NCBI GenBank assembly: GCA_963706595.1
Contig: OY970166.1
Coordinates: 1,952,001 to 2,016,000, forward strand
DNA: 64,000 nt
Reading direction: 5' to 3'
Source: an uncultured cyanobacterium
Lineage (GTDB): Bacteria; Cyanobacteriota; Cyanobacteriia; Cyanobacteriales; Nostocaceae
Part shown: piece after piece, positions 3,633 to 22,306 of the stretch
How the letters are laid out: each line of letters begins with the position of its first letter
How positions within the stretch are numbered: position 1 is the stretch's first letter
Notes under the pieces: generated by a model
Told to the model about the DNA's origin: nothing
The model's input: only the letters and a program-made list of their open reading frames with translations
Databases searched by the model: none
Position numbers and translations under genes: made by a program

Positions 3633-3670
3633 TTACTAATATTTTGCAACAATTGGGGAATTTTGAAACT

Positions 3671-5542
3671 ATGGAAGCATCAGAACTTGTAACGAACCTC
3701 ACTGATAAAGGAGTTTATCTTTGGGTTGATAATGACAAACTGAAGATTCGTTCTCCCAAGGGTATAATTACCCCAGAAATCCAGGCAAATCTCATTGCTT
3801 ACAAAACAGAAATTTTGGCTTTTATCTGCGAGAAGGATATCACTAAAAACACTGAGGTTGTGCCTCTGATACAGGGGCTAAATGTGCAAACTATTGGACG
3901 TTTGATTGGGGGATTTGCGGGTAAAAGCACTGTGGAATATAAACCACCTATTATTGACCCTAAAAAGATGGCTCAACAGTTAATGGTGACATTTAAACCT
4001 TTGCCAAAAAACTATAAAAAGTCAGAAATTTTGCAATTCCGCCAAGAATTAGAAAATTATCTCAAGGAATATGGTGTTAAAATCATTCCTTGGGAGCAAG
4101 CAACCACAGAGTTTACCTATGACATCTTATTGCCGATAATTAACCAGAAAAAAATCTTTAAAGTGAGGGGAGTTAGAGCCGAAATTAATGCTGTTATTGA
4201 TGTAGAAAATTCTCCATCTGCACTCAGGAAGCTGGGAATTTGTGCTGCGGAAAATTGGTACAAATTTTATTGCGACTTTATGTTGAAAAACCGAGAAATT
4301 TCGGTATTAAATATTGCCAGATTTAGTAGCTGGGCTGAAGACCACGCAGCCAAATATGTTGAAGATCCTACTAATACTCAGGTAATAATTTTAACCGAAA
4401 TAGATCATGATTTCATTAACCCAGAGATACCATATCAACAAAAAATTAATATTGGTTTAAATACTTTAGTTAGAACTTTTTCGGAAATTGTCATTGGAGT
4501 TGCTGTTGATAAAATTTCTATTTTAAATATGAATCTTTCCGACTCTATCTTCCCAAAACAAGAAATGAAAGAGTTTGTTTTTAAATCACTAATCCCAAAG
4601 GTTTTTGTGCCAATTTCTCCACTTTTATTGAATCGTTTTGAAATAGGAGAGTATCAATCAGAAAAATCTATTTTTGCGAAAAAATTAGTAAAATTGGGTC
4701 AAGAACTTGCATTAACAGGTCTATTTCCTCCTGGGTTTAAACTGAATGAAGTAATTAAAAGAAAGTCTCATAGAGATATTGTCAATGTGATTGTGAACGG
4801 TAGAACAGGTGTTTCTTATGGGTTTGTGGCTTATGCTGAACCTCCGCAATATTTTGGGGCTAAGGAAATAAATGTAGCTGAATGGGAAAAATTATCCCCT
4901 GTTGAGGGATTTACCAGTAATGAACTTCGTCAAAATGAACAAGGTAGACGTTATCTCAAAACCCAAATAAGAGGAGAAAATGTATTTAAGCAAATACCAG
5001 ATATTTGGCTGGTTAGCGCTCGTTCAGGGTCAAACAAAACCAATTTGAATATTGCCAGTGATGTGATTAGAATTGGTTTGAAAGACAAATTATATCTGGA
5101 ACTACCTGAAGGTATTCAGACAAACAAGGTAGATATCAAACCTTCTTATGATATCTACGTAATGCTGGCAATTAGTCTGTCTGCGGCTTTATATACGCCA
5201 GATTTAATTAAAGATGGTGCGCCAATTGTCCATTTTCACGGTTATCCGGCATTTGATTGGTTTAAACCGCATGAGTACTGTGTGGGAGTACACAACCCTT
5301 CTGTGCCTTGCGGTACTTATGAATCGGGTGTGTTCAATTTTTTGGGGATTTCTAGTTTAGCAAATCAACCGACAGCAAATATGTCTTTAATCAGTCTAGT
5401 AGAACCAGATCATGGGACTAATTTTATCGGACATGATTTGGAGTACCTTGTGGAAAGGTTGAAAACTGGTTGTGCTGAGGGGCAAATTGAGTTAGGTGGT
5501 AAGCATTTTGCTTCTCTGAAGGCTAAAGTAGAAAAATCTTGA
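3671..5542 (+). CDS. Protein with NRPS-type (TubC-like) N-terminal docking domain and C-terminal class II aldolase-like domain
   Basis: N-terminal GVYLWVDNDKLKIRSPKG...KTEILAF; C-terminal SGSNK, HFHG, PCGT and EPDHG resemble class II aldolase metal/phosphate motifs. Confidence 0.55.
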   Translation: MEASELVTNLTDKGVYLWVDNDKLKIRSPKGIITPEIQANLIAYKTEILAFICEKDITKNTEVVPLIQGLNVQTIGRLIGGFAGKSTVEYKPPIIDPKKMAQQLMVTFKPLPKNYKKSEILQFRQELENYLKEYGVKIIPWEQATTEFTYDILLPIINQKKIFKVRGVRAEINAVIDVENSPSALRKLGICAAENWYKFYCDFMLKNREISVLNIARFSSWAEDHAAKYVEDPTNTQVIILTEIDHDFINPEIPYQQKINIGLNTLVRTFSEIVIGVAVDKISILNMNLSDSIFPKQEMKEFVFKSLIPKVFVPISPLLLNRFEIGEYQSEKSIFAKKLVKLGQELALTGLFPPGFKLNEVIKRKSHRDIVNVIVNGRTGVSYGFVAYAEPPQYFGAKEINVAEWEKLSPVEGFTSNELRQNEQGRRYLKTQIRGENVFKQIPDIWLVSARSGSNKTNLNIASDVIRIGLKDKLYLELPEGIQTNKVDIKPSYDIYVMLAISLSAALYTPDLIKDGAPIVHFHGYPAFDWFKPHEYCVGVHNPSVPCGTYESGVFNFLGISSLANQPTANMSLISLVEPDHGTNFIGHDLEYLVERLKTGCAEGQIELGGKHFASLKAKVEKS

Positions 5543-12131: not shown

Positions 12132-15100
12132 TTAATTTCTAGTGCCAATTCCATTCAAATATATAATGACTGGACTATTGAAAGCATCACTACTAATACT
12201 GAGTTTTGCATCACGTTTCCCTTCACCTTGAGCATAGAAACTCACATCAATTTGATATTGATCACCTGGAGCTACTACAGTTTGAGTAATGCGGCCAGTA
12301 GGACTAAATTCGTTAGTATGGTTAGGGCTAAAGTCGTTAGTATGGTTGCCTTCTATCTGAATATTAGTGATACTTAAAGGTGCTGAACCTGTGTTAGTAA
12401 CTATAATAGTTTGTGGTGGGCTACTTTGATCTCCTATTTCTTGTTGTCCAAAGGTCAAGGAAGTACGACTTAGGCTGATATTTGGTCCAGGAGGGTTGGT
12501 GGCATTTCCAGTTAATTGAACTTGTTTGGGACTACCCGCAGCGTTATGGGCAATTTCTAGAATGGCTTGGCGATCGCCTTCATTTCTGGGTTGAAATTTG
12601 ATAGTAATTTGACAATTCTTTTCTGGTTCAACAGATGAATTATTAGCACAACTATTTTTAACAAATTTAAACTCTTGACTATCAATATTAGTGCTAGTTA
12701 TCTTCAAAGATGCTGAACCTGTGTTAGTAACTGTAATAGTTTGTGATTGGCTACTTTGATCTCCTATTTCTTGTTTTCTAAAGGTTAAGGAAGGACGACT
12801 TAGGCTGATATTTGGTCTAGGAGGGTTGGTGGCATTTCCAGTTAATTGCACTTGTTTGGGACTACCCGCAGCATTATGGGAAATTTCTAGAATGGCTTGG
12901 CGATCGCCTTCATTTCTGGGTTGAAATTTGACAGTAATTTGACAATTCTTTTCTGGTTCAACAGAGTAATTATTAGCACAATTATTCTTGATAATTTCAA
13001 ATTCTTGACTGTTAATTTTAGTGCTAGTTATCTTCAAAGATGCTGAACCTGTGTTAGTAACTGTAATAGTTTGTGGTTGGCTACTTTGATCTCCTATTTC
13101 TTGTTTTCCAAAGGTTAAGGAAGCACGATTTAGGCTGATATTTGGTACAGGACGCTTGGTGGCATTTCCAGTTAATTGGACTTGTTTGGGATTACCCGCA
13201 GCATTATGGGCAATTGCTAGAATGGCTTGGTGATCGCCTTCATTTCTGGGTTGGAATTTGATAGTAATTTGACAATTCTTTTCTGGTTCAACAGATGAAT
13301 TATTAGCACAATCATTCTTGATAATTTCAAATTCTTGACTGTCAATTTTACTACTAATTATCTTCAAAGATGCTGAACCTGCATTATCAATAGTAATTTC
13401 TGCTGTATTGCTATCTCCAAGAAAGATGTCACCAAAGTCCAATATCTGAGATTCAATCACCAAAATAGGTACAGGTATTTCACTTCCACTTCCAGTAAGT
13501 TGGACAAGCTGGGGAGTATCACTAGCATCGTGGTAAATTGTCAGTTCAGCATTGTACTGACCAGGAGTTTTGGGAGTGAAATCAATACTGATTTGGCAAA
13601 TATCTTGAGGATTGATCACATCTCCCGTAGCACAACCTCCAGATATAGTTTTAAAATTATCCTTTCTCTCACCACTAATCACAATAGCGAGAATTTTTAG
13701 GGGTTTTAAGCCTTGATTGCTAAAGGTCAAAGTTTTTGCTGGACTAGTTTGATTAATCTCTAAGGTGTTGAAATCTAGATTTTCTGGAGCAAGTACAACC
13801 CTAGCCTGATAGTTAGATAAAACAGATTTAATTCCCCATCCAATTAAGAACAGTCCAAAAATAGCAACAATTACCTTTAACCACAGAGGAAATCGGAGAA
13901 TGAGTAAATGAGACTCTGGCAGATGTTCGGGAATATTTGCGGATGGTTTTTCGCTAATATCAGGTACTTGATTGAGGATGTTGAGATTATGACGAGTGGC
14001 TTCAGCACCAATTTTGTCACCTAAAGATTCCCGAATCCGAAGTGCTTCATTTAAGAATTTTTGAGTTGAACTTTGATTTCCCAAACAAAGTTCACGAGTC
14101 CCCAGTTGATGCCATACCCAACTTTCGGTAACTTGGTCTCCAATGCTTTGCACCGCTTGCAGAGTTTGTTCCAATACCTGCCGCCATGCGTCCCACTGCC
14201 CATTCAGGTACTAGAGAACTTTCTGCGGCTCTGGCAAGAGTAGTCATCTCTGCATGATGACCATGCGCTGCTGCCCATTGCAATAGTTCCAAAAGTACAT
14301 CTGATTCTTGCAATAAGTTTTCAGGCAATGATTGATACTGTTGTACCCAGTTGCTAGAATAATTTAATATTTGCTCCATGCAAGCAGTTAAATTCCATTC
14401 CTGCTTCACAAACTCAATCACGTTGTTGGCGATGCGATAACAATCACCTTCCAACTCTACTAAATGAAATTTTTGCAAGCTATTTAAAAGTGGTTCAATC
14501 TTCAGTGCTTCTGTCTGGGCAGATGTATGCGATATTTGACTTATTTGTTGAGCAGCAAGCGTTGTTAAGGAAATTAGAATCGCTAAAATTGATAAAATCC
14601 AACGTTGAGATTTGGTGAGCGAACCCAATATATGCTTCCGCAAAAATTCCTCACGAGAAGATGATTTTACTAATTGTAATACTTCTGCTAAGGATAGGTT
14701 TTTTTCCTTGGCGATCGCTACTGTTTGAAGAATATCAAGAGGATGATTTTCCAAGGCAACACAGAGTAACTTAGCAGTAGATAATTCCTCCGGTGTTAAA
14801 GTTCTTCTTAACTCCTGTTCTACTAAACGTAAAGCATCCCTCTCCGGTAAACCTGGTAAAGCTTCAGCATATCCCTCTCCCCAAATATGTCGCTCATGAG
14901 ATGCCAGTATAAATGTGCCATTGGGGACGACGGTATTAATTACTCTATCCAAGTCATCTTGTTGCCACTGCACATCATCTAAAAGTAGCAGAAATTTTTT
15001 ATTATCTAACTTAAATTTAATCTCATCGTCAGTAGGTTTATAGGGAATATCACTGCTATAAAAGGCATTAAATAAAAATTGCAGCCAGTCAGAAATAGAC

Positions 15101-15633
15101 TTGCCACGAGTATCGTCATAGATAATACCATCAGGAAAGAGTTTTTCAATTTGAGGATGGTAAGAAAGGTAACGCAAAAGTACAGACTTTCCTAATCCCT
15201 TTCGTCCATAAAATTCTACTGGTTGTTCATACTGAAGGCTGGTAATTGTACTACTAACTTCTGATTTGCGACCTAGTAGACCAACAAACTGACGCGGACG
15301 AAAAAAAATCGGGGTGGTGCGAGGTGTTAATTTAACTTGTTGCTGTGGAGAAGTAATATTCACAATCCCACCATAAATATCTTTTATTTGGTAAATGTAA
15401 TTACCACAAGCTATTTGACTATTAGTATTTTCATTGATGTTATAGATGTCATCGCCAATTCTCTGAGCGTTTACCGTCTCAGCATTTACTACATCTCCAG
15501 CAAAGTGAGCGCCTTTTAAGTTGAAATTATTGGTTTCATTATTTACAGTTTGCTGGTTGTTATCGCCTTGAACATTATTGACGTTTCCGCCTACAGAACC
15601 ACCAACTGAAAAGTCATTAGGATTGTTAGTCAT
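12132..15633 (-). CDS. STAND/NB-ARC-like NTPase with TPR-like helices, TM segment and about five Ig-like (choice-of-anchor D/ASH) repeats; split by a +1 frameshift near 14207
   Basis: Walker A GRKGLGKS and Walker B LLLLDD; removing one G at 14207-8 joins the two ORFs (SSLV-LNGQWDAWRQVLEQ) into about 1166 aa; ~330-bp tandem repeats at about 12.4-13.4 kb. Confidence 0.75.
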
Positions 15634-15774
15634 TAAACTTCCCTATTCAACATTGGCATAAACGCTAAAACTCTCCACATTTTGAAGCGTAGAACTATCG
15701 ACTTGATACTTAAAAGCTAAATCAGGCTATTGTGAATTAGAGTTATCTGGTAGCGGATAACTCATAAATCATTT

Positions 15775-16251
15775 CTACAATCCCAATAGAGATGAACCAG
15801 CAGCAGCACCCAACCAGCTTGCAACCTTGATCATAATAGGCTTGGCTGTTGTCCACAGTTTTTTACCAGAATCAACAGTCTGAGTAGTCTTTTCTAAAGT
15901 TTCAGCAACACTTTCCAAACGATTTAATGCACGTTGTTTATTTGGTTCTTCTTTTTCTGTTGCTTTCTGGGCTGCACTCAAATCTTCAATGATTTCTTCT
16001 TTTGTGTCTGCTGGTAGTTCTGTTTCTTTAATCAAAGTTTGCAGTTTTGCAAGTAACTTGACAACATCCTCTTTATTCAATGATTTTGCGATATCTGCAC
16101 TTGCTTGGTTATGTTGTGTTACTTGATTACCATCTCCGAGTACAGCCTGATTATTATCTCCCTGTACTACTCGGTTATTGTCACCCTGAACGTTATTGAT
16201 GTTCCCGCCTACAGAACCACCAATGGAAAATCCACCAGAATTGTCAGTCAT
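15775..16251 (-). CDS. Small protein with G/N/Q-rich N-terminal motif and helical C-terminal domain
   Basis: 158-aa ORF with AGGGAAG RBS; N-terminus nearly identical to that of the downstream NTPase. Confidence 0.75.
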   Translation of the reverse strand: MTDNSGGFSIGGSVGGNINNVQGDNNRVVQGDNNQAVLGDGNQVTQHNQASADIAKSLNKEDVVKLLAKLQTLIKETELPADTKEEIIEDLSAAQKATEKEEPNKQRALNRLESVAETLEKTTQTVDSGKKLWTTAKPIMIKVASWLGAAAGSSLLGL

Positions 16252-16286
16252 AAAACTTCCCTGTTTTACGTTTGAATAAAAATTCA

Positions 16287-16684: not shown

Positions 16685-19057
16685 CTAATCAACCGCTATT
16701 GGCCAAATTCTGATCGTTTTGTCAGCACTACCACTAGCGAGTAACTTACCATCTGGACTCAAAGAAATAGCATTTACAGTTCCTGAATGTCCAGTCAAGG
16801 TTTGCAAGACTTCACCTGTAGAAAGTTGCCAAATTTTGATCGTTTTGTCAGCACTACCACTGAAGAGGGTTTTGCCATCAGGACTAATGGCTAACGTTTT
16901 CACCTCATCTGCATGACTATTTAATGTATGCAGAAGTTTACCTGAGATTAAATCCCAAATTTTAATAGTTTTGTCAGCACCACCACTAAAGAGGAATTTG
17001 CCATCAGGACTCATGGTAATTGATTTTACCTCACCTGAATGACCGATGAGGGCGCGTAAAGGATCACCGGTGCGTGGGTTCCATAGTCTGATTTTGCTAT
17101 CAGCACTCCCACTGGCGAGGATTTTACCATCGTGGCTAATTGCGATCGCATGGACAGCAGAAGTATGCCAAAGTGTAGAAATGCGATCGCCTCCGGCGCG
17201 GCTTTGCCCATCGCTTGTATGCAAATTCCAGATTTTGATTTTATGACTCCCACTAGCCATAATCTGCCCATCTGAGCTAATTGCGACGACATTAACTGGT
17301 TTTTGATGTCCTAGAAGCGTATGCAGTAGTTTACCCCTTTTTAAGTCCCATACCTTCACATTGCTTCTGGGATGTTCACAACTACCAACAGCCAGAAAAT
17401 TACTATCAGGACTAATTGCAACAGATGAAACTGCTCCTTGATTAGCTGTGAGGGTGCGAATTTGTTGACCAGTCTTAAGATTCCAAACATTGATAGTTTT
17501 GTCAGTACAACCACTGACTAAAAACTCCCCATCTGAACTAATAGCTACTGATGCAACCTTCCCCGAATGTGCAGCCAGGGTATAACTGACAGAGGGGGAT
17601 GCTAGGGTAAGTTTCTCCTGGAGATGAGCGATTTTATCTAAAAGCTGGTCTACAGCCGAAATACTTTCACTATGCCCTACTGCTGTAAAATACTCTTTTA
17701 ACTTTTGCAAATATGCCTTGTCTTCTATCTTGATGGCTGATTGCATCGCCTCGAAAGGATTAATAAATTCCTCTACCGACACTTGACGTAATTCCAACCA
17801 TCTGTTGATAGAATAATCAACCTGTGACTGCGCCCAAGAAGAATCAGGTAAATGAGATAAACTTTGGGCTAATTGCAAAGCCAACTCTGGAACCCAGTAA
17901 CGACGCTCATCTTCTAAAGCTTGATAAACTTCTTCATAACCTGTAGCGTATACCCGCAAAAGTTCCTGTACAGATTGTAAATTAAAAGTATCTTCAAGTA
18001 AACTGGGCAGCACCTCTGGTAATAAAGGCGACACATCATAGTCCACTAAGTGATAAGCATCAGCTACCCAAGCAGCAACTAAACAATGACAGTTAATTAA
18101 CACCTGGGAAAGGGTTTCTAAATCCTGATGATTAACTTGATATTTTAAGGATAATTGACTCATATCAATACCCTGACCTTGCCATTTTTCCGCCTTTTCT
18201 AAAATTGCCAGATTTAGCACATTATCTTGGCCTAAATCATTAATTTCTGCGATATCTTCCCCCATTAATCGGAGTTCATCTCTCACCTTTCTCCATTCTA
18301 AAGCCCGACTTTTAGCAGACTCATGCAGAATTTCTCGATAAGGTAGACGAAAGATGGTTTTGTAATAATAAGTTTCCTGACCTAACCCCCAATAAGCAAT
18401 GCGGAAATTGAGATAATCCCCATCATGCTCCGATTCTAAAATCAAAATCGGCTCTGTTTTTAACATTCCAAACAAAGCCTTGATACTAGATTCACTATGA
18501 AACCGTTTACTATCCCAAGCGCCTGCTAAAAGTTCCGTGGGTCGAATGGGACTGTGGAGCGAATAATATTTGTGCAGAAACTCTCGTAAACCTTCCGCCA
18601 AAGTTAGCTCTATTGCCGAATTTTCCTCACTATTGTGGTCAAATTGGTCAAACTTAATTTGTGGAGGAGCTAGAAAAATTTTCAGAGGTTTACGTTGAGA
18701 ATTAGTGCCAACATCTAAAATTTGAGAAGGATATAGTCTCAAAGGCCAACTATCAAAAATTTTGGCAACTTCTGGCAATTTAAGAGAAGTTTCTCGTGAT
18801 TGCGTTGCTATTTTTAACTGTGTTGCACGTTGGTAAATAGCCAATTCTTGTTGCAGGACTTTTTGCTGTTCAAAGTCTGTAATCACACCATCTTTTTGCA
18901 GAGGTAAATTTACAGTTTGGATGAATTCTTTAATTACTTGAGGGAATTGAGAATTGTTGGTAGAGAGACTTTCAGCAGTTCGCTTTTGGATGAGAGTGAC
19001 AATCACAGGTGTGAACTCGATCACCAATTGAGTGAGTAACCTTAATCCTGGCTCCAT
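16685..19057 (-). CDS. WD40 repeat protein with uncharacterised N-terminal region
   Basis: Seven GH...SGS.DKTIKIW repeats at the C-terminus. Confidence 0.9.
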   Translation of the reverse strand: MEPGLRLLTQLVIEFTPVIVTLIQKRTAESLSTNNSQFPQVIKEFIQTVNLPLQKDGVITDFEQQKVLQQELAIYQRATQLKIATQSRETSLKLPEVAKIFDSWPLRLYPSQILDVGTNSQRKPLKIFLAPPQIKFDQFDHNSEENSAIELTLAEGLREFLHKYYSLHSPIRPTELLAGAWDSKRFHSESSIKALFGMLKTEPILILESEHDGDYLNFRIAYWGLGQETYYYKTIFRLPYREILHESAKSRALEWRKVRDELRLMGEDIAEINDLGQDNVLNLAILEKAEKWQGQGIDMSQLSLKYQVNHQDLETLSQVLINCHCLVAAWVADAYHLVDYDVSPLLPEVLPSLLEDTFNLQSVQELLRVYATGYEEVYQALEDERRYWVPELALQLAQSLSHLPDSSWAQSQVDYSINRWLELRQVSVEEFINPFEAMQSAIKIEDKAYLQKLKEYFTAVGHSESISAVDQLLDKIAHLQEKLTLASPSVSYTLAAHSGKVASVAISSDGEFLVSGCTDKTINVWNLKTGQQIRTLTANQGAVSSVAISPDSNFLAVGSCEHPRSNVKVWDLKRGKLLHTLLGHQKPVNVVAISSDGQIMASGSHKIKIWNLHTSDGQSRAGGDRISTLWHTSAVHAIAISHDGKILASGSADSKIRLWNPRTGDPLRALIGHSGEVKSITMSPDGKFLFSGGADKTIKIWDLISGKLLHTLNSHADEVKTLAISPDGKTLFSGSADKTIKIWQLSTGEVLQTLTGHSGTVNAISLSPDGKLLASGSADKTIRIWPIAVD

Positions 19058-20488: not shown

Positions 20489-21136
20489 ATTTCCAGGAGT
20501 GTAAAATTTTAAAATTATCCCACAATTCAGGAAGAGGATGTAACTACTTGGGAAAAGCGGTGCTTCAGTTATTTTTATGGAAAACTTTGGACAATAAATA
20601 TTTTATAGCCATTATCCAGTGCTGTTTCCACTCCAGACACTACTCAGTATCATTCTGACAATTGTTTTTATTGTCGAACTTTACCAATTTCAAAATTTAT
20701 GAGGCTGGTCTTTGCTGTGGGCAACAATTCAAGGGTCAACGCAGAAAAGGACAAAATAAGGGGCAACCTTTTTCCTTTCTAATTCTCAATGAAGGTAGAG
20801 GAATGGACTTTACCATAAACTTTTAGAAACCCTGGCGGTTGACACTCAGCAATTAACAAATTTTGTGTATTTTGCCCTCTCCAGATATCCCAATCAGAAT
20901 TCTAAATAGCACTCCATTCAGGGATACAATAACACTAGATATAGAAATCATATTTGATTTATGAAAAATTTTAAGTATTGTAGTGGCGTGGCAAGGCTAA
21001 AATGTTGCAATAGATTTTAGCCTTGTCACGCTACTACGTGTCTGTTCAAAAATCAAATAGTAGTCCTATATTTAATCCCGAAATCTGCAATTTATTTTGC
21101 ACCACTACTTATGAAAAAACAAAAGTGAAAACTAAA

Positions 21137-22306
21137 ATGCGGATACTAATGATTACGCCTAACTCAATTGCTGCAAAACGTCCTTTAGAGTGGTGTCTGA
21201 TCAACGGAGATGAAGTTTTGTGTGTCGGAGAAGAGGACTTCTATCAAAACAACCCTCCTCAAAACTATAGTTTTATCCCTGCTATTTCTAGTGGCATAGA
21301 TATCTTGCTAAATTCACCTGAATCAACCACAGAAAAGATAGCGGATTTGCGTAAATTACAAATAGAGCAACTGCAAAAATTAGTCAAAGAATTTCAACCT
21401 GATGTCATTCATGGGCATTACTTTTCGTTCACTGTAGAATGTTGTGCCTTAGCAAATTTGCACCCTTTAGTCGTATCAGTTTGGGGATTTTTGAATGATT
21501 TAATGTCGTCTGAAGCAGAGCGTCTCTTTAAATTTTATCCAGAGATACGTCCAATCATAGAATCGTCTGACGCTTTAATTGTTGAGACTCCTATTTTACT
21601 TGATAAATGTCAACCGTTCTTGAAATCTAACCAGCGATTAGAGTTAATACCTTTAGGTACAAACACACAACACTTCTCTCCTTATGATGGAGAGAATGTA
21701 GATTGAGCCAGAAAAATCTTAAATATTCCCCAAGAAGCTAAAGTTTTGTTATCGCCAAGAGGTTGGGATGAATCTTATCGGCATCAAGAGATTCTAGAAG
21801 CATTTGCTCTAGCTTATTCAGAATTACCACACCCAACAATACTTTTATTTATAGCTTTAGGGCGTGGCACAAGTGAAGAAGCTAAACTTTATCATCAAGG
21901 TATATTTCAGGTAATAGATAAACTAAAAATAAAGGATCATGTTAAAATCTTGCCTCCTATGTCTTATGAAATGATGCCTTATGTCTATGCTTTGGCAGAT
22001 GTAGTCATTAACTATCCTATTAATGACGCTTTTCCGTCTACGATAATAGAAGCAGTTGCCTGTGAACGACCTGTAATTACTGCTCAATTGCCAGGTTACA
22101 AAGGTACGTTCATTGAGGAATTCTGTACTTTAGTTGATGCCAATAATATGACTGAGTTAGCTAAGGCTATGGCTGAAGTCGTCAATACACCCAGAACTAA
22201 TTACAGCAGTCAAATTGCTAAAGCCCGTCAGGTAATAGTTGAACAATACGATGAGAGTATATTTAAAAATCGTCTGTTTAATCTTTATAAAAATCTGATG
22301 ATATGA
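21137..22306 (+). pseudogene. GT4 (GT-B) glycosyltransferase interrupted by an in-frame TGA at 21704-21706
   Basis: MRILMI start, FQPDVIHGH, DAFPSTIIEAVACERPVI; the two ORF-track pieces are in the same frame separated only by one stop codon. Confidence 0.75.

Follow-up and report, generated by a model that had tools for sequence, protein, structure and literature searches.

A conserved cyanobacterial two-gene module whose effector and sensor-type partner share a G/N/Q-rich repeat: a candidate amyloid-like signalling pair of inverted topology

The window analysed here is the whole 64,000 nt stretch at positions 1,952,001 to 2,016,000 of contig OY970166.1 (GCA_963706595.1), from an uncultured cyanobacterium of the Nostocaceae. 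On its minus strand a gene for a 158-residue protein, which we call the effector, is followed by a gene for an NLR-like protein with an NB-ARC domain, and both proteins begin with the same motif rich in glycine, asparagine and glutamine (G/N/Q-rich). The features of the pair, in window coordinates, are as follows.

15775-16251 (-): effector gene, an open reading frame (ORF) of 158 residues encoding a G/N/Q-rich N-terminal motif, a four-helix bundle and a hydrophobic C-terminal helix
16253-16262 (-): AGGGAAGTTT, resembling a ribosome-binding site, before the effector ATG (from the sequence)
16174-16251 (-): effector residues 1-26, the segment common to the neighbouring NLR (alignment; DNA identity 63/78)
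16123-16194 (-): three effector octads, NVQGDNNR / VVQGDNNQ / AVLGDGNQ, residues 20-43 (alignments, register match to partner N-termini)
15811-16107 (-): predicted effector helical bundle (AlphaFold2 helices at residues 49-56, 60-76, 81-99, 105-123 and 127-147)
15778-15840 (-): effector C-terminal hydrophobic segment PIMIKVASWLGAAAGSSLLGL with G148xxxG152, a predicted membrane-inserting tail (Kyte-Doolittle)
14092-15633 (-): NLR-like gene, first frame, a 513-residue ORF homologous to an intact relative, L016, up to residue 475
15635-15644 (-): AGGGAAGTTT, resembling a ribosome-binding site, before the NLR ATG (from the sequence)
15556-15633 (-): NLR residues 1-26, the shared motif (alignment, phmmer)
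14938-15225 (-): NB-ARC match, NLR residues 137-232 (Pfam), with Walker A GRKGLGKS at 15184-15207 and LLLDDV at 14971-14988
14207-14209 (-): NLR frameshift, one extra base (GTACCT here, GTA-CT in L016)
12132-14207 (-): NLR continuation in the shifted frame, with TPR-like helices, a transmembrane helix and five choice-of-anchor D / ASH Ig-like repeats (Pfam, NCBIfam)
13818-13904 (-): NLR transmembrane helix VIVAIFGLFLIGWGIKSVL (Kyte-Doolittle mean 2.24)
12132-14174 (-): 680-residue ORF overlapping the 513-residue ORF in another frame

Both ORFs lie on the minus strand where the original prediction had placed them, their N-termini read as it had written them, and the first 26 residues are common to the two. 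The putative ribosome-binding site that it counted as part of the duplication precedes both start codons; 14 of the 18 bases upstream and 63 of the first 78 coding bases are identical, against only 6 of the 23 thereafter. The same boundaries of DNA identity are found in L016 (L numbers denote loci of other genomes, and P numbers proteins retrieved by sequence search). The best local alignment joins effector residues 1-35 to NLR residues 1-33 with a score of 117, compared with 38.5 +/- 6.2 (maximum 61) in 500 shuffles (z = 12.6). The core of the motif is three 8-residue repeats, or octads, of the form xVQGDNNx. The repetition already described for the small protein recurs at period 8 (G23/G31/G39 and N26/N34/N42); these G/N positions are invariant or at least 90% conserved in a 41-sequence motif alignment, and N, G, Q and V together account for 32 of the first 50 effector residues. 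Genome-wide, the tag is specific to the two neighbours: a strict motif regular expression run over six frames of the 5.57-Mb genome matched these two ORFs only, a looser two-octad expression matched the effector only, and phmmer with the first 49 effector residues against 28,724 six-frame fragments returned the effector itself (3.5e-25), its neighbour (1.2e-5) and then nothing better than E = 6.1. Two further motifs that had been described behind the shared one are present in the NLR sequence (residues 27-115) but match nothing else in the genome (best non-self E 0.49), and their interpretation as additional paired tags was rejected for want of a partner in this genome. A signal or leader peptide was likewise rejected as a reading of the tag, because the fused proteins described below have the motif in their interior and most partners have it only from about residue 20-30 onwards.

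The downstream gene does encode a STAND NTPase as first described, in that its 513-residue ORF carries Walker A and B motifs and a match to NB-ARC (PF00931) of 29.5 bits against a cutoff of 23.5, but not in a single intact frame, which a +1 frameshift breaks. The intact 1171-residue relative in L016 aligns to the window by tblastn in two pieces, residues 1-474 in one frame and 475-1039 in the next. The native order of the protein would be motif, NB-ARC, TPR-like helices, transmembrane helix and extracytoplasmic Ig repeats. Read through the frameshift, it is a predicted membrane-spanning STAND protein with NB-ARC and TPR inside and Ig-like repeats outside, a layout unusual for an NLR sensor and intact in L016. 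Because the window sensor is frameshifted, the local copy may be inactive, unless the extra base is an assembly error; it may be decaying. Within 8 kb of the frameshift, a GT4 glycosyltransferase is also divided between two adjacent ORFs, with its Glyco_trans_4 half at 21023-21706 (+) and its Glycos_transf_1 half at 21746-22306 (+). This may be another broken gene or an indel of the assembly, and real gene decay and assembly indels would each account for it.

For the window pair taken by itself, the shared N-terminus could be a functionless scar, left when a recent recombination or duplication copied the 5' end of the effector gene and its ribosome-binding site onto a decaying NLR pseudogene. 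The 81% DNA identity reaches into the 18 nt upstream and ends abruptly after codon 26, the window NLR is frameshifted, and the body of this NB-ARC protein is rare (6 of 301 genomes of the order, the window's own included), with other members of its family having unrelated N-termini, their matches beginning at residue 62 or later. We nevertheless regard a scar as very improbable. The same junction is kept in an independent genome with an intact 1171-residue NLR (L016), synonymous differences within the shared segment suggest retention rather than fresh copying, the frameshift itself is possibly an assembly error, and the family-wide pairing and covariation described below argue for function.

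Conservation of the pair and of its motif sharing, on which the original prediction was partly staked, was assessed with one script throughout for 61 effector copies, 60 in 59 loci of species-representative genomes plus that of the window. A copy was counted as paired if a same-strand open frame within 200 nt downstream had an N-terminus with a motif score of at least 46. By this measure the pair is a conserved cyanobacterial two-gene module, with a motif-bearing gene downstream of 49 of the 61 copies. Of 41 pairs counted separately, 35 have their genes spaced by exactly 9 nt. Most partners carry three octads in register with those of the effector (e.g. NVVQGNQNRVVQGDENQSVLGDNNTVVQGN); the partners in the window and L016 share the first half of the motif plus the first octad, and those of the more distant L055, L056 and L058 share both halves.

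Relatives of the effector comprise 106 proteins of 86-277 residues and 107 longer, fused ones of 278-2000 residues. All organism-named sources are cyanobacterial and nearly all are filamentous genera, among them Nostoc, Anabaena, Nodularia, Rivularia, Calothrix, Moorena, Symploca, Coleofasciculus and Mastigocoleus. The family alignment opens with a conserved GGFSVGGSVGGxVxNxQGDNN, continues with RAVQGDNN-type repeats and passes into the helical region, ending in a tail (P138...W146-L-G148-AAAGS-LLGL in the window effector) of which P138, W146 and G148 are invariant. AlphaFold2, given 25 sequences, leaves the motif disordered (predicted local distance difference test, pLDDT, <50 for residues 1-56) and models residues 60-147 as four helices (pLDDT ~76-85 for the block 61-150). 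The claim that the motif is N-terminal in both partners holds for the standalone form of the effector but not for the fused form: 38 of 61 copies make up the C-terminal end of an open frame longer than 300 residues, so that their motif is internal. In every copy the motif comes before the helical domain.

Long relatives are annotated mostly as pentapeptide-repeat proteins, and the fused examples that were translated and scanned are pentapeptide-repeat membrane proteins. P0107, for instance (727 residues; L010:4294-6477 (+)), has the complete 158-residue module at its C-terminus behind pentapeptide repeats. The order in P0107 and at most of loci L001-L051 is pentapeptide repeats, a hydrophobic stretch of ~190 residues of near-pure Ala/Val/Gly/Phe/Thr, more pentapeptide repeats, a ~170-residue domain without family assignment and the motif-plus-bundle module. 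Other domains fused ahead of the module are AbiTii (6 proteins), TRADD-like_N (2), caspase (1) and Band_7 (1). The effector also matches the PADLOC profile PDC-M14B (E = 6.3e-10), a 'guilt-by-embedding' phage-defence candidate as introduced in the part of 10.1101/2024.01.29.577857 used here. The AbiTii, TRADD-like_N and caspase fusions and the profile match fit a putative defence context. Three further loci, L073-L075 (G271, G424, G469), encode pentapeptide-repeat membrane proteins with a helical tail that matches the same PADLOC profile and have neither octads nor a motif-bearing downstream gene; they are possibly orphan or differently coupled variants. Several other family assignments of the effector were discarded. 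The name ElaB/YqjD/DUF883, given by JGI to one homologue (P0020), finds no Pfam DUF883 match at E <= 0.1. A 0.88 lead to TCAD2 from the ESM Atlas, which otherwise returned the family's own cyanobacterial clusters, was dropped with no Pfam TCAD2 match at E <= 0.1, and matches to Pfam KBP_C and NCBIfam GerR/RsfA lay far under cutoff and were treated as coiled-coil noise.

While the effector is constant, its partner is a variable sensor-type protein. A Pfam scan of 46 downstream proteins, with the NB-ARC of L016 taken from a separate scan, gave the following distribution.

NACHT: 19/46 partners
nSTAND1: 7/46 partners
iSTAND: 6/46 partners (in L003 followed by an AAA ATPase gene and a WD40-repeat gene)
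FGE-sulfatase (FGE/C-type lectin type): 4/46 partners
HTH_upst_double_PIN giant proteins: 2/46 partners
PIN-TPR-GreABC: 1/46 partners (L005)
WD40 only: 1/46 partners
NB-ARC/ASH: 1/46 partners (L016)
TPR: 1/46 partners
DUF488: 1/46 partners
No family: 3/46 partners

Three of the 46 scanned proteins lack the motif (the 550-residue protein of L027 and those of L045 and L049), and a later scan added nSTAND1 (L023), NACHT (L025) and WD40-rich (L018) partners. The original prediction of an NLR as partner is thus right as to sensor types of conflict systems but too narrow, as the partners also include FGE-sulfatase/lectin, TPR-GreABC-PIN, WD40-only and iSTAND proteins. Among 1.84 billion cluster representatives, a profile of the motif alone retrieved only 73 at E <= 1e-3, of which 20 reached <= 1e-10. 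Thirty of the 73 were scanned; they fall into the partner families listed above and carry the motif at about residues 20-62, and one of these proteins, P0235, has a TPR-GreABC-PIN architecture like that of the L005 partner. The octad profile also drew in P0246, P0230 and P0240, which are unrelated and contain 8-residue repeats in long series, e.g. STATQGDW ~14 times or RAITGSGN ~17 times; they are possible natural tests of an octad beta-solenoid.

A constant small protein with variable partners recalls the EACC1 two-gene system, in which a constant membrane-associated 5' gene accompanies a variable 3' gene (Kaur et al., PMC7159879, in the part of that study considered here). By analogy, the small protein could be a tail-anchored membrane tether or scaffold that recruits variable sensors, with death or defence executed by other domains. 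Its hydrophobic C-terminal helix, the membrane-anchored name given to P0020 and the predicted membrane-spanning layout of the window-type NLR are all in keeping with this, as are the position of the module at the end of >300-residue frames in 38 of 61 copies, where the scanned examples are polytopic pentapeptide-repeat membrane proteins, and the presence of effector-type domains such as PIN in some partners. Most partners (NACHT, nSTAND1 and iSTAND with repeats), however, show no effector domain of their own in Pfam scans, which leaves the small protein as the sole candidate executioner in those pairs; the DUF883 name lacks a Pfam match, as noted, and the analogous helical proteins Bell, Bab and HeLo are executioners. 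We therefore consider a tether decidedly unlikely.

Co-variation of the motif within pairs, a check proposed earlier, is present across three motif classes and absent at the level of individual pairs within Nostocales, where the motif is near-invariant and pair-specific covariation was not seen. The PADLOC profile yielded the additional classes, in two diverged homologues of the effector (L077 and L078) whose helical domains are homologous to that of the window effector (BLASTP 1e-18 and 2e-17). The L077 effector motif is VQIGQAGRDLTQTQ, and the two NACHT genes downstream start GQIGQAGRD and GQIGQALRD; the L078 effector motif is VQMVQAGQNATASQ, and the downstream NACHT gene starts VQQVQAGGDAIALQ. 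The effector-by-partner score matrix is block-diagonal, with cognate scores of 59-126 and cross-class scores of 19-41 (shuffle z 7-20); the cognate pair of L016, outside the matrix, scores 128. As judged from these alignments, effector and partner have exchanged their motif in concert on at least two occasions. Such a concordant double swap is hard to explain unless both copies must match, which argues for function.

A matching requirement need not involve templating. The octads could fold as a stable short beta-roll that docks effector to sensor one-to-one or in a defined oligomer, making the motif a stoichiometric homotypic adaptor, in function an effector-associated domain (EAD). The layout follows that of EAD coupling, in which, in the part of PMC7159879 drawn on here, the same module (EAD1-11, small, mostly alpha-helical globular domains) occurs in one copy on the core STAND/iSTAND component and in one on the adjacent effector. 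The near-identity of the motif across many pairs and the occurrence of several pairs per genome (L013, L017 and L028 are from one strain) make it behave like a generic docking module. Partner N-termini also give weak matches to a folded beta-roll family of grass antifreeze proteins (PF21300 LbR_Ice_bind; 20.9-30.5 bits against a cutoff of 30, all but one below it). On the other hand, no Pfam EAD model matches the pair at E <= 0.1, and the motif is a G/N/Q-rich repeat of 25-45 residues that AlphaFold2 leaves disordered, unlike the globular EADs. Three octads would make ~1.5 beta-roll turns, which are unlikely to be stable alone, and one motif class is built on QAGRD, a core found abundantly among published bacterial amyloid signalling sequences (BASS). 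On this evidence we think an adaptor without prion-like templating unlikely.

On balance, and with some reserve, we consider it probable that the 158-residue protein and the adjacent NB-ARC protein work together as effector and sensor in a cyanobacterial immunity or programmed-death module and that the G/N/Q-rich repeat couples them, likely through amyloid-like (beta-solenoid) templating. At the level of the family, the genetic finding of a conserved, co-varying motif on effector and partner is solid. The richness of the motif, its disorder in AlphaFold2 and the weak beta-roll matches are compatible with an amyloid-like reading and fit it. In the mechanism we propose, a triggered and oligomerised sensor would bring its N-terminal motifs together, stacked as a cross-beta or beta-roll nucleus, and this nucleus would template the same motif (the octads) on the effector. 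As a result, the hydrophobic GxxxG helix at the effector C-terminus would come loose from the four-helix bundle, insert into the membrane and damage it, so that the cell would be killed or arrested.

Several observations weigh against the templated pair and temper our confidence. Pairs of Nostocales show no cognate preference (mean scores of 92.5 cognate and 89.8 non-cognate), and five divergent pairs (window, L016, L055, L056 and L058) account for the permutation p of 0.0016, a value that phylogeny also confounds. Twelve of the 61 effector copies have no motif-bearing partner downstream (L004, L006, L036, L038, L039, L040, L041, L043, L045, L048, L049 and L053; at L040 just 359 nt of contig are left downstream), and some partners, such as the FGE-sulfatase and WD40-only proteins, have no NTPase to drive oligomerisation. 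The window pair itself has an atypical gap of 141 nt, and DNA alignment with L016 places one extra base at ~14208 that splits its NLR gene. The effector tail is of borderline hydropathy (maximal 19-residue Kyte-Doolittle mean 1.33, residues 139-157), AlphaFold2 packs the C-terminal helix into the bundle, and Foldseek against the PDB found no fold match at E <= 1e-3, returning generic helical bundles only. Finally, the searched part of the BASS data of PMC8086366 holds 0 matches for VQGDN, QGNQN, QGDGN or QGNNN.

A broader and frankly tentative extension of the templated pair would treat the octad beta-solenoid switch, four-helix bundle and glycine-zipper helix as a portable 'death-tail' cassette, the common executioner for at least 8 unrelated sensor classes of filamentous cyanobacteria, with polarity reversed relative to HET-S, Bell and Bab. 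If this were true, the cassette would also serve sensors without an NTPase (FGE/C-type-lectin, WD40-only), its motif could be exchanged for BASS1-like or other motifs with the executioner kept, and prion-like templating would be a general plug-and-play bus for bacterial immunity in place of an NLR speciality.

For fungi and animals it is established that immune sensors and death effectors communicate by amyloid or prion-like signalling. To our knowledge, its bacterial counterpart so far rests on Bell/Bab-type effectors with C-terminal motifs. The present module would add a second, unrelated effector fold in the opposite arrangement (motif first, predicted membrane helix last), a motif of 8-residue repeats, and a 'one effector, many sensors' layout with NACHT, nSTAND1, iSTAND, NB-ARC, lectin and PIN-TPR partners. 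Short peptides and the natural motif swaps together offer a way to ask how templating specificity is encoded, and widespread cyanobacterial proteins annotated as 'hypothetical' or 'pentapeptide repeat' acquire a likely role.

Two other genes of the window may be mentioned. Upstream of the effector, on the same strand, a 790-residue WD40 protein (16685-19057 (-)) has seven C-terminal WD40 repeats and a 480-residue N-terminal region with no Pfam family; its PADLOC HEAT-ARM_XIII match lies over the WD40 part. A 632-residue ORF at 3644-5542 (+) has an N-terminal TubC_N docking domain, hinting at a natural-product assembly-line gene nearby.

Among known systems, that of fungal HET-S and NWD2 works by templating: the motif at the N-terminus of the NLR acts as template for a pseudo-repeated one on the neighbouring pore-forming HeLo effector, and the repeats form a beta-solenoid. 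The present pair likewise has an NLR N-terminal motif matching a repeated motif on a neighbouring helical effector. It belongs to another kingdom and to other families, and the HET-S order of N-terminal membrane helix and C-terminal motif is here reversed. The beta-roll of the Lolium ice-binding protein also consists of tandem N/G/V-rich repeats with a periodicity of ~7-8 residues, but is a full folded roll compared with about three repeats here, a resemblance of repeat type and not homology. The effector resembles PDC-M14B over residues 29-139, which match positions 156-265 of the 267-position profile, and differs from it in that the first 155 positions find no match, so that the similarity is not full-length; cyanobacterial matches to this profile start at positions 148-161 and end at 258-266. 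The literature searched yielded no text on PDC-M14 itself and no description of the effector family or of the octad QGDNN motif, the supplementary tables of preprints, which may bear on novelty, lying outside that search.

Like the EAD and EACC1 systems (PMC7159879), the module places one short module on both core and adjacent effector, common to many core systems, joins a constant 5' gene to a variable 3' gene and is enriched in multicellular bacteria; it differs from EADs in that a low-complexity repeat, predicted disordered, replaces the globular domain. The Bell-domain/NLR pairs with the amyloid signalling sequences BASS1-10 (Dyrka et al., 10.1101/2020.01.06.895854) resemble the present module in that neighbouring collinear genes are separated by very little DNA, an NB-ARC/NACHT protein accompanies a small helical effector, a G/N/Q/V-rich motif of ~25 residues is present both on the effector, where it can be repeated, and on the NLR N-terminus, and the pairs are confined to multicellular or filamentous bacteria. 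They are unlike it in that the BASS motif lies at the effector C-terminus whereas here it is N-terminal to the helical domain, in that the hydrophobic helix is N-terminal in Bell, with its bundle of about five helices, and C-terminal here, and in that partners here include non-NLR sensors. Pfam and NCBIfam assign the effector to no family, and by its described features it is not recognisably a Bell domain. In the searched part of the PMC8086366 data, QGDNN occurs once, incidentally, in an NLR N-terminus under C06. Entry C06_BAZ20405.1 there has an octad-like stretch (...STLSGGMQAIQGDNNIQLQGN...) ahead of its annotated motif, so that published sets may already contain the tag, overlooked and in a stack with another motif. 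The L077 motif core QAGRD, compared by eye, occurs 1,146 times in the same data, all 28 of the matches listed falling in family C01 (e.g. ...RVYQAGRDQHITER), which is presumably BASS1; GGSVGG, in one C09 sequence (C09_s041), resembles the first half of the window motif, again by eye.

Bab/Agp (BASS11; 10.1101/2024.11.07.622273), a validated amyloid-signalling abortive-infection system of E. coli with the TPR-GreA/B-C-PIN sensor Agp, shares with the present module its two genes and a motif (amyloid in Bab/Agp) common to the sensor N-terminus and a small helical effector, and its TPR-GreABC-PIN architecture partners this effector family in L005 and P0235. It differs in its motif, its effector and its opposite topology, in the window's partner being an NB-ARC-TPR-TM-Ig protein, and in resting on experiment where our case is built from sequence. 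A conserved, co-varying, motif-sharing pair is the genetic signature of the HET-s/NWD2 and BASS systems. The original prediction of a BASS/HET-s-like amyloid pair is upheld in that signature (conserved pair, shared co-varying motif and sensor partners) and needs correcting in its claims on topology and partners; the best reading would be a signalling pair of the BASS/HET-s-like kind in which effector and motif are new and the topology is inverted.

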